Positions 38,457 through 39,776 of a stretch of 52,289 bases of DNA are shown one piece after another. The notes beneath the pieces were generated by a model. The model did not search any database and was not told the origin of the DNA. It worked only from the letters and a program-made list of their open reading frames with translations. This DNA comes from a virus: IMG/VR virus record IMGVR_UViG_3300035502_000579; one strand, 5' to 3'. The first letter of the stretch is position 1; every line of letters begins with the position of its first letter. A program made the translations under genes and the position numbers.

Positions 38457-38854
38457 TTGAAATATAGTTCAAGTAATAAACCATTACAATGTATGATGAC
38501 AAATAGTACTTGTTATAAAGGTACTACAACAATGACGATTAAAGGTGTTTTATGGCATAGTACTGGAGCAAATAATCCCAATTTAAAAAGATATGTTTAG
38601 CCCAGTTCTAATGACCCCAATTATAAAACACTAATCAGCAAGATTGGTAAAAATACCAATAATAGTGATTGGAATCATATTGAACGTGAAGCTGGTTTGA
38701 ATTGCTGGATTGGTAAGCTGGCTGATGGAACTGTGGCCACTGTATAGACAATGCCTTGGAATTATAAACCGTGGGGTTGTGGTAAAGGTTCTAAAGGGTC
38801 TTGTAACAACGGGTGGATTCAATTTGAGATTGACTCTTCAAACAGTCTCCGTAT
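38457..38854 (+). CDS. endolysin exon 1 (Amidase_2 / PGRP N-acetylmuramoyl-L-alanine amidase, N-terminal part)
   Basis: SD AAGGGAGAAG then TTG 38457; IKGVLWHSTG and GCGKGSKGSCNNGWIQFEI amidase_2-like blocks; 2 in-frame TAG; frame then enters a stop-rich insert. Confidence 0.55.
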
Positions 38855-39226
38855 AGAGTAATCTGTATGTTAAAATATGCATTGAATTGCTGGGAACTCC
38901 TAAAGCTATATCTACCACAACAGAAAGATGAAATAAGCTTAAATGTGAAGGTTACGAAAGTAGAAAAAAAGATATAGATGGCACAAGGTTAAATCCTAAA
39001 TGTTTGAATAATGGACAATCAGCAGCGAAGTCTCGAATAGAGAAACGTTCAACGACTATCCTGTAAAGGAGTAGATTATATTGTCAGATATAATCGAAGT
39101 GGTGCACTCCATTTATTAATGGATGAAGATATAGTCTGTACTTTATTGAAAAATAAAGAGATTAAGAATAATCAAGTATAAAGAAATTTGACAAATTTCA
39201 TTTAAAAAAATACTTTAACAAAATAG
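38855..39226 (+). ncRNA. putative group I intron in the endolysin gene
   Basis: about 370-nt stop-dense insert in the same frame as both exons; contains AACGACTATCC..AAGGAGTAG resembling the group IA P7/P9 core of T4 td; ends in G; exon 1 ends in T. Boundaries inferred. Confidence 0.5.
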
Positions 39227-39776
39227 ATGTGAAGATGATTTAAACGATGAGACCTATTTTAACAAAGTTTATAAAGAAGCTTGTGAAATTACAGCTTATT
39301 TATGTAAATTATACAACATTGACCCTAATGGAACTACAACTTTTAATGGTGTAAAAGTTCCAACAATTTTATGTCACCATGATAGTTATACATATGGCCT
39401 TGGCTCTAATCATGCGGATGTTACTCACTGGTTTCCAAAATTTGGAAAAAGCATGGCCACAGCCAGAAATGATGTAGCTAATTTAATGAATGGAGTTACT
39501 TCCACTTCTACTTCAGTATCTACATCTACATCAAAAATTACACCAATTAATAAAGAGGAGGATGAAGACATGACTCAAGAAAAATTTAATGAAATGATGA
39601 CTAGTTATATCAATACTCTTGCGGAAAAAGATGCTACATTTGAGAAAGACGCAATGGAATGGGCTAATGCTAATGGTTTAATTAGTGGCGACGATAAAGG
39701 CCGATTAATGCCTAAAAAGTTTTTGACTCGTGGAGAAATGGCTGTTATCCTAAAGCGTTACAACGAGAAAAAGTAA
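39227..39776 (+). CDS. endolysin exon 2 (Amidase_2 C-terminal part + SLH domain)
   Basis: CHHDSYTYGLGSNHADVTHWFPKFG amidase_2 C-terminal block; TSTSTS linker; C-terminal EWANANGLISGDDKGRLMPKKFLTRGEMAVILKR is SLH-like; stop TAA 39774-39776. Confidence 0.55.

Follow-up and report, generated by a model that had tools for sequence, protein, structure and literature searches.

A predicted group I intron in an endolysin gene from a large, uncultivated phage in which TAG probably stands for glutamine

Introduction

Group I introns are known from lysin genes of Streptococcus thermophilus phages (Foley et al. 2000, J Virol 74:611, as cited in PMC11878797) and, in Staphylococcus phages, from 20 of 205 endolysin genes (PMC6507118). 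Stop-codon recoding of late and lysis genes has been described in gut phages (Borges et al., bioRxiv 10.1101/2021.08.26.457843; Peters et al., PMC9523058; 'Phassvirus', PMC10607447), and in crAss-like Delta and Zeta phages, introns or inteins and reassigned stops occur in the same genes (PMC7886860). Here we analyze an endolysin gene at positions 38457-39776 of IMG/VR virus record IMGVR_UViG_3300035502_000579, a stretch of 52,289 nucleotides (nt) that we call the window. We consider it highly probable that this gene is interrupted by a 396-nt, IA2-like group I intron without an open reading frame (ORF), in a large, uncultivated phage in which TAG stands for glutamine (Gln). Compared with the Streptococcus and Staphylococcus cases, the locus differs in its lysin family (Amidase_2 plus SLH), in its uncultivated and putatively TAG-recoded phage, and in its ORF-less intron.

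Recoding and intron jointly conceal this gene from routine annotation, which fails twice here: under the standard code the lysin stops at codon 48, and what remains is divided by the intron. In the standard-code gene calls of the Joint Genome Institute (JGI) at this locus (tables of L363-L370), the lysin appears only as a 107- or 146-amino-acid (aa) 'SLH' fragment, and the neighboring PhoH gene is split in two. A corrected gene model is the main practical value of the locus, and the predicted spliced protein could be produced as a lysin with SLH targeting.

Results and Discussion

The split endolysin gene

The gene consists of the following parts, with the exon limits set by the splice junction argued for below.

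38457-39776, plus strand: lysin gene, intron-split Amidase_2 plus SLH endolysin; TTG start, TAA stop at 39774-39776
38441-38447, plus strand: Shine-Dalgarno-like AAGGGAG, 9 nt 5' of the TTG start, read directly from the sequence
38457-38830, plus strand: lysin exon 1, codons 1-124 and the first 2 nt of codon 125; N-terminal Amidase_2 half
38831-39226, plus strand: predicted group I intron, 396 nt, IA2-like, after U38830 and with last base G39226
39227-39776, plus strand: lysin exon 2, third base of codon 125 to codon 307 plus TAA
39624-39743, plus strand: single SLH repeat (PF00395), residues 258-297, Pfam 31.2 bits against a cut-off of 20.8

From the TTG at 38457, a start codon shared with the L062 contig, which carries the same intron, the exon 1 frame encodes MKYSSSNKPLQCMM...GWIQFEI. 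In unspliced RNA, this frame continues past the junction for 10 codons to a TAA at 38859-38861, which falls within intron helix P2. From 39228 downstream, the lysin frame gives CEDDLNDETYFNK... up to the TAA at 39774-39776. The spliced lysin has 307 residues. Amidase_2 (PF01510) matches residues 26-177 of the spliced protein with 43.9 bits against a cut-off of 26, covering both exons, and exon 2 contributes the C-terminal Amidase_2 half, a Ser/Thr linker, and the SLH repeat. Among PHROG families, the protein matches 15001 'endolysin' best (E 5e-35). SLH is also recorded in many lysin homologues. We note that many relatives carry an extra N-terminal Phage_lysozyme2 domain or an extra linker domain, neither of which is present in the window lysin; the long lysins of L032-L038 (1086 nt) were suspected of holding a second intron, but the added stretch is an extra protein domain. 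On L032, an IMG/VR contig, an RT-2 RNA (RF03077, 159 bits) lies at 1019-1236, roughly 5 kb 5' of the related lysin.

Five residues, H34, E124, H183, H195, and D197, are invariant in 10 aligned lysin sequences. Exon 1 supplies H34 and E124, the latter aligned with PlyL E90, the residue mutated to Ala in entry 2ar3 (E90A). The intron lies 2 nt past the E124 codon, so that neither exon alone would code for an active enzyme. The product is a putative N-acetylmuramoyl-L-alanine amidase with a C-terminal SLH-type wall-binding repeat, predicted to be lytic and to have an SLH ligand.

Intron identity and fold

An earlier note, made by reading the sequence alone, had proposed an Amidase_2 plus SLH endolysin split by a group I intron, with a scan against Rfam model RF00028 in Infernal as a check. 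In that scan of the 52-kb window, RF00028 matched 38826-39158 with 63.2 bits against a gathering threshold of 50 (E 9.2e-14, model positions 1-253 of 253). This was the sole non-tRNA match above threshold in the window, permissive scan included. Together with Pfam matches above cut-off and covariation, it bears out the proposal. The earlier reading of an insert rich in stop codons between amidase halves, followed by an SLH-like C-terminus that runs to the TAA at 39774-39776, is confirmed as well. No ORF longer than 36 aa is present inside 38831-39226.

Helices were assigned from the RF00028 alignment and an unconstrained minimum free energy (MFE) fold. Pairs of the P2-P9 model were counted on an alignment of 22 sequences, the window intron and 21 relatives; P1 was excluded, since the exon with which it pairs differs from one host gene to the next.

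38826-38832 with 38843-38849, plus strand: P1, 7 base pairs (bp), U38830.G38845 wobble, from the unconstrained MFE fold
38850-57 with 38862-69, plus strand: P2, 8-bp hairpin with GUAA tetraloop; 8 of 8 pairs changed on both sides
38878-83 with 39101-06, plus strand: P3, 100% paired, 5 of 6 pairs covary
38888-93 with 39019-24, plus strand: P4, essentially invariant in the alignment
38898-900 with 39013-15, plus strand: P5, plus an extension of roughly 108 nt
38906-12 with 38971-77, plus strand: P5 extension helix, 7 of 7 pairs covary
39025-26 with 39047-48 and 39031-34 with 39040-43, plus strand: P6; the inner pairs are 100% paired and 4 of 4 covary
39054-59 with 39131-36, plus strand: P7 pseudoknot, invariant in the 22 sequences, pair G39054-C39136 included
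39060-62 with 39067-69, plus strand: P7.1, GUAA loop, covaries
39074-81 with 39088-95, plus strand: P7.2, covaries
39108-13 with 39118-23, plus strand: P8, only 64% paired in the alignment
39141-47 with 39152-58, plus strand: P9, GAAA loop, covaries
39160-64 with 39169-73, plus strand: predicted P9.1, MFE fold only
39174-79 with 39210-15 and 39183-89 with 39193-99, plus strand: predicted P9.2, MFE fold only

Support for this fold comes from the pattern of change among the 22 sequences. Paired cells made up 92.6%, compared with 34-45% when 3' partners were slid by 1-3 columns, and changes on both sides were seen in 45 of 66 pairs, compared with 18-24 in the slid controls. The covariation score was 0.519, against 0.108 or less in the controls, and none of 500 column shuffles attained any observed value. 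Covarying helices were P2, P3, the P5 extension, P6, P7.1, P7.2, and P9. The low pairing of P8 is probably due to misalignment of a variable hairpin.

The P7 pseudoknot encloses P7.1, P7.2, the 3' strand of P3, and P8. Placement of P7.1 and P7.2 between P7 and P3' (39060-69, 39074-95) is a hallmark of subgroup IA, and the lysin intron has both, in agreement with the td-type, group IA kinship first suggested for it. The motif on which that suggestion was based, AACGACTATCC..AAGGAGTAG, is present at 39051-39074 but corresponds to the 5' strand of P7 and the P7.1 hairpin, not to P7/P9. The 3' tail reads ...AAAAUAG and terminates in G39226. We describe the intron as IA2-like, since the model used is the general RF00028 and the likeness to IA2-classed IStron ribozymes (PMC4227781) is indirect. 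Splicing by the intron is predicted from its sequence and modeled fold.

TAG codons at conserved glutamine sites

The first exon contains two in-frame TAG codons.

38598-38600, plus strand: in-frame TAG, codon 48; homologous column with Q in 78 and TAG in 4
38745-38747, plus strand: in-frame TAG, codon 97; homologous column with Q in 77 and TAG in 5
Predicted Gln peptides: YVQPSSNDPNYK for codon 48; for codon 97, a peptide containing ATVQTMPWNYK

What had been described as one reading frame is therefore split as proposed, but under the standard code its exon 1 is broken at 38598 and 38745. Both TAGs fall at conserved Gln sites, and the lysin is readable only if TAG is Gln. All nine aligned homologues have Q opposite both codons, as does PlyL (PDB 1yb0), whose Q aligns with the codon 97 TAG. 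An intron-less relative, L007 (79% aa identity), shares TAG48, which suggests that recoding is older than the intron.

The same pattern extends across related loci. Among 83 lysin loci, all 42 in-frame stops within the aligned ORF were TAG, and the well-conserved TAG columns (48, 78, 97, and 122) had Q in 74-79 of ~82 other sequences. Called proteins of homologues show Q at TAGs in the DNA, at 7 sites in L001 and 3 in L003. In the PhoH/PIN gene, all 8 relatives have Q opposite the window's TAG; of the 18 in-frame TAGs in the relatives' PhoH, 16 lie opposite Q in the window. Use of TAG is uneven: HNH, GIY-YIG, and homing-endonuclease-like genes are rich in it (4-8 each), as are radical-SAM genes (up to 10), and it occurs in the lysis region, with none in the RNase H, gyrase, and ligase genes. 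Such unevenness is the published pattern for recoded phages (bioRxiv 10.1101/2021.08.26.457843; PMC10607447). Taken together, the phage appears to be TAG-to-Gln recoded (genetic code 15), and its lysin does not appear to be a pseudogene.

Natural variants and distribution

We found seven contigs covering the intron, from seven samples, and the intron is present in every one. Two haplotypes are represented: three contigs match the window at 100% identity, and four, of the L062 type, at 98.5%. The haplotypes differ by six intron changes, all structure-neutral: U39062C and A39067G form a compensatory U-A to C-G replacement in P7.1, G39063A, G39087A, and G39166A all lie within hairpin loops, and the last is a one-base deletion in an A-run. 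Persistence across samples of an intron-bearing allele as the sole lysin allele argues for splicing, provided that the rest of the genome does not hold a second lysin.

The search for the intron covered ~160 related lysin loci, 80 of them in IMG/VR and 80 in GTDB genomes, together with motif-selected loci. The intron is found in the window lineage only, its carriers being the L062/L314 contig and contigs from sister samples. This sporadic distribution fits a mobile element newly arrived in the window lineage. The intron is without an endonuclease gene. Homing in trans by free-standing endonuclease-type genes of the genome is possible, as in 'collaborative homing' (PMC3984707).

Predicted expression and points against it

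In the proposed mechanism, the lysin pre-mRNA would fold into a P1-P9 ribozyme, in which an external guanosine would attack after U38830, itself positioned in P1 through the U.G wobble. The 3'-OH released on exon 1 would attack after G39226, joining the exons. Translation of the spliced mRNA would need UAG codons 48 and 97 to be read as Gln, by a suppressor tRNA that is presumably phage-supplied and encoded beyond the sequence examined. Unspliced RNA would give a fragment of at most 134 residues, ending at TAA 38859, and without suppression, lysin translation would end at codon 48.

Several observations weigh against an expressed, spliced lysin. Read from the sequence, P10 is weak, with 3 bp where it adjoins the site (38842-44/39228-30), or 6 bp at a 3-nt offset (38835-40/39230-35). 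Rfam's alignment of P1 includes several non-canonical pairs, and P5 proper is 3 bp. The spliced Ile codon would be AUA, compared with AUU or AUC in intron-less alleles. SLH modules usually come in threes, which is their common functional unit. Pfam matched one stretch in the lysin and no three-repeat tandem array; the earlier suggestion of a host with SLH-anchored wall polymers is reasonable, but it is weak with one SLH repeat. With only part of the genome seen, a second, uninterrupted lysin may lie elsewhere in it. Finally, no tRNA with a CUA anticodon was found among the 15-18 tRNAs of the window, in 10 kb upstream, or in the L-loci scanned, with ~5 kb downstream (L357) unscanned. ARAGORN was run in these scans with its default, a 90%, and an 80% threshold, and Rfam with gathering as well as permissive thresholds. 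Two odd tRNAs were inspected by hand as suppressor candidates and rejected, 11793-11863 as Thr-UGU and 9453-9519 for its stunted anticodon arm. Missing suppressor tRNAs are known from other recoded phages (PMC7886860; PMC10607447).

Alternative explanations

One alternative is that the ribozyme is intact but conditional, or dependent on a protein or ribosome cofactor, with the intron acting as a lysis timing or regulatory element. The weak P10 and short P5 could be read this way, and the lysin intron is fixed in its lineage, whereas another insertion of the genome (51677-51945, described below) is polymorphic. The host gene is also already gated by TAG codons, and domesticated, regulated group I introns are known (PMC3984707). 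However, no ligand-sensing or protein-binding module is marked in the sequence, ordinary introns occur in the lysin genes of other phages (PMC6507118), and ~160 related lysins without the intron speak against a needed function. We regard this alternative as unlikely.

We also think it doubtful that the intron and the two UAG codons form one coupled lysis timer, an idea to which nothing here points specifically. Splicing of the T4 td intron in vivo relies on translation of the upstream exon. Under a coupled timer, ribosomes would halt at UAG codon 48 before suppressor tRNA builds up, and the ~230 nt of untranslated exon 1 could mispair with the intron, leading to poor splicing. Reading of UAG as Gln would let ribosomes advance to the intron and the ribozyme fold, with a sudden onset of active lysin. 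Co-option of the intron to amplify the recoding switch would explain its fixation in the lineage while the 51677-51945 insertion varies. If splicing and suppression were linked in this way, the locus would be a small natural system in which to study how lysis is timed by layered controls.

A pseudogene, with two CAG-to-TAG nonsense mutations, a non-splicing insertion, and lysis carried out by another enzyme, was the alternative named in the earlier note. It would account for a standard-code frame that ends at codon 48 and for scans, of about a third of the genome, that found no suppressor tRNA. Yet TAG, never TAA or TGA, recurs at Gln sites of lysin and PhoH across the clade, and the window lysin is 66-79% identical to homologues along its full length, without frameshifts. 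The core helices of the intron are all intact, the differences between haplotypes preserve structure and include one compensatory pair, and the intron-bearing allele is retained in seven samples. The clade-wide placement of TAG at Gln sites and the retention of the allele contradict a pseudogene, which we judge very improbable.

The relatives of the intron bear on a further alternative, that the insert is a decayed IStron that lost its transposase and arrived by transposition rather than homing. The closest deposited relatives of the core, at 75-83% identity, occur in Clostridium phage c-st, Bacillus phage LY2, and Enterocloster phage CB457P2. The c-st relative (82.7% over 185 nt) adjoins an insertion sequence (IS) transposase, the LY2 relative splits a portal gene and adjoins transposase genes, RAGATH-18 RNAs accompany both, and IStrons have been described in C. 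botulinum phages (PMC4227781). On the other hand, the equally close CB457P2 relative adjoins not an IS but a gene annotated as an intron-associated endonuclease, and the insert contains no IS ORF. The ends also disagree. Group A IStrons follow TTGAT-like sites and end in TCAG, while group B IStrons follow a GG-ending site, do not splice after U, and end in CGG (PMC4227781); the insert follows GAGAU, with its U paired to G, and ends in AUAG, fitting neither. Descent from an IStron therefore seems most unlikely.

Other observations on these relatives were made in passing. The RAGATH-18 RNAs, at L005:4309-4378 and L006:4083-4146, lie beside the transposase genes near the c-st and LY2 cores, and these sets of RNA, transposase, and core are IStron-like composites. 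The LY2 portal gene is annotated as two coding sequences flanking the element. A looser search with the P7/P7.1 motif gave 119 metagenome stretches and 67 IMG/VR stretches, and the motif pattern that includes P7.2 had no matches in metagenomes; the analysis as a whole yields ~150 related ribozymes. Several related cores lie within a few kb of one another on contigs L087, L088, and L089 (IMG/VR, 42, 379, and 151 kb), L290, and L243, which suggests intron-dense genes in other large phages. L290, L243, and other ~149-kb contigs with related introns have only the intron DNA in common with the window.

The splice junction

Homologues without the intron indicate where the exons should join. All nine aligned uninterrupted homologues (66-74% identical) read GWIQFE-ICED without a gap, intron-less alleles have an uninterrupted TTTGA(A/G)AT(T/C)TG(T/C)GAAGA at the junction, and PlyL (PDB 1yb0) is likewise ungapped, with E-I-C contiguous. 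Breaks at 38830/38831 and 39226/39227 are the sole pair that combines a U.G in P1, a terminal G, and the homologous frame. Because the three agree only there, we place the 5' site at U38830/U38831, giving an intron of 396 nt. The Ile codon is restored as AU/A (...GAG AU/A UGU..., for ...FE-I-CED...), and the predicted product matches ~160 uninterrupted homologues. G39229 was considered as an alternative intron end and rejected, as the invariant Cys would be lost. On this sequence evidence, the homologue alignment settles the predicted junction.

38830/39227: predicted spliced mRNA, ...CAATTTGAGAT joined to ATGTGAAGATGAT...
Predicted spliced junction peptide: ...GSCNNGWIQFEICEDDLNDETYFNK

A join at T38854/A39227, as first proposed, would keep the frame, with a T preceding the intron, and give a 315-residue lysin with an extra DSSNSLRI, but it is scarcely credible: the eight added residues occur in none of the nine homologues, U38854 sits within P2 and not in P1 facing a G, and Amidase_2, whose spacing the join was said to match, falls by 6 bits, from 43.9 to 37.6. 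Of that first description, a start after a T holds for U38830 but not for T38854, which is 24 nt too far 3', and an insert of about 370 nt becomes one of 396 nt. The end with G at G39226/A39227 is confirmed by the homologue frame.

Genomic context, phage, and host

The lysin belongs to a three-gene unit flanked by two terminator-like hairpins.

37749-37785, plus strand: terminator-like hairpin, 17-bp stem then a T run, after the PhoH/PIN gene; consensus match, upstream edge of the lysis cassette
37809-38438, plus strand: small ORF just 5' of the lysin, readable only with 2 in-frame TAGs as sense
39804-40112, plus strand: ORF for a 102-aa protein with two hydrophobic segments; a 103-aa ORF is in the same place in L001
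40116-40157, no strand assigned: palindromic terminator-like hairpin, consensus match, 3' end of the cassette

Judged by position and hydrophobicity, the 102-aa protein is probably a holin; it had no PHROG match and no family match. The ORF at 37809-38438 had no Pfam or PHROG match. The region is syntenic with that of relatives (PhoH, lysin, an ORF of ~103 aa, RNase H, and gyrase). Three small ORFs, 37809-38438, 40192-40725, and 40757-41280, flank the lysis cassette, each with an in-frame TAG, and two of them are clearly similar to each other; none had a family match, and no counterparts are called at those positions in L001.

Every gene of the window is on the plus strand, and its G+C content is 33%. 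Contigs of relatives are 145-150 kb long, from which we estimate a phage genome of about 150 kb, with about a third visible here. The best lysin match among GenBank phages is 44%, and the gyrase-ligase block had no meaningful DNA match among deposited phages. Members of the lysin family occur in Oscillospiraceae and other gut Clostridia, both in their phages and in their genomes, and two contigs of ~148 kb are binned into metagenome-assembled genomes of Oscillospiraceae and Eubacterium. The host is thus probably a member of gut Oscillospiraceae/Oscillospirales or related Clostridia. The locus adds a well-supported intron/lysin pair from a clade of uncultivated phages with genomes of ~150 kb that appear to be TAG-recoded and to infect gut Clostridia.

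A second split gene lies near the end of the window, with parts at 51301-51676 and from 51944 to beyond 52289 (a 271-aa ORF), separated by an insertion of ~267-269 nt at 51677-51945. This insertion is polymorphic, unlike the lysin intron: L358 has it, and the near-identical L357 and L360, with flanks 97-99% identical, lack it. The base before it, U51676, forms a U.G wobble in an MFE P1. The insertion ends in ...AAAUG, contains P7-like GAGACUAU...GAUAGUCC motifs, and has a better fold than its shuffles (z -2.8). Even at E<=10, Rfam gave no match to it, and a partial relative in Enterococcus phage EF1 has a weak RF00028 match (24.5 bits). The insertion is probably a small, divergent group I intron missed by the general model. 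A database lookup with the 126-aa product of 51301-51681 found nothing, because the gene is split. We also note an RNA ligase gene at 28716-31124 with an intein at roughly 29290-30370, in which the Pfam domains Hint, Intein_splicing, and LAGLIDADG_2 lie between the RNA-ligase halves; the intein starts at a Cys (HG/CFISG) and ends at ...VHN/T.

Four endonuclease-type genes (1797-2765, 10419-11219, 49104-50093, and 50027-51022) are among the TAG-richest, with 4-8 in-frame TAGs each. Two are Cys-repeat paralogues matching HNH/homing-endonuclease PHROGs, one is an ORF with a weak, sub-cut-off HNH Pfam match, and one is GIY-YIG. Their TAG content echoes the recoded intron endonuclease of Agate phages (bioRxiv 10.1101/2021.08.26.457843). 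Four radical-SAM genes, in 5980-8179 and 14124-17505, have 1-10 in-frame TAGs each, and the ORF at 7550-8179, beside one of them, has an N-terminal half made of a Cys/Gly/Ser-rich repeat (CSGDCGGGCKGTCSDSCSGGC...). These genes together look like a peptide-maturation cluster, unusual in a phage. The tRNA array at 8-19.5 kb has odd members at 8263-8337, 11699-11790, 12127-12220, and 9453-9519. It includes two tRNAs with A at anticodon position 34 (Asn-AUU and Ser-AGA) and one of 94 nt that has the anticodon UAU (Ile) and a long variable arm, and sister contig L354 has an additional tRNA-Glu(UUC).

Comparison with known systems

The window intron shares its P1-P9 core, with P7.1 and P7.2, with phage IA2 introns (T4 td type, Twort, and Bastillevirinae) and with the IA2 ribozymes of IStrons. 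The strands conserved with phage IA2 introns are J6/7-P7 (GUUCAACGACUA) and J8/7-P7 (AAGAUAUAGUCU). It differs from both kinds of element in having neither a homing endonuclease gene nor an IS, and its ends are canonical (U.G, terminal G), unlike those of group B IStrons. As with the known phage lysin introns, it is spread sporadically among related phages.

The putative recoding resembles that of gut phages in that TAG would stand for Gln and is concentrated in some genes, and in the likely host, Clostridia with a standard code. In contrast to those phages, no suppressor tRNA was located in the sequence scanned, and the window phage is not close to any deposited genome. With crAss-like phages, it shares the presence of predicted self-splicing elements and recoded stops in one gene and in one genome; its lineage and likely host phylum (Bacillota, not Bacteroidota) differ, as does the gene hit, a lysin. 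Lysin introns, TAG-to-Gln recoding of lysis genes, and the occurrence of both in one gene are already established in phages. This locus is therefore new not as a phenomenon but as an example from a lineage without a deposited phage.

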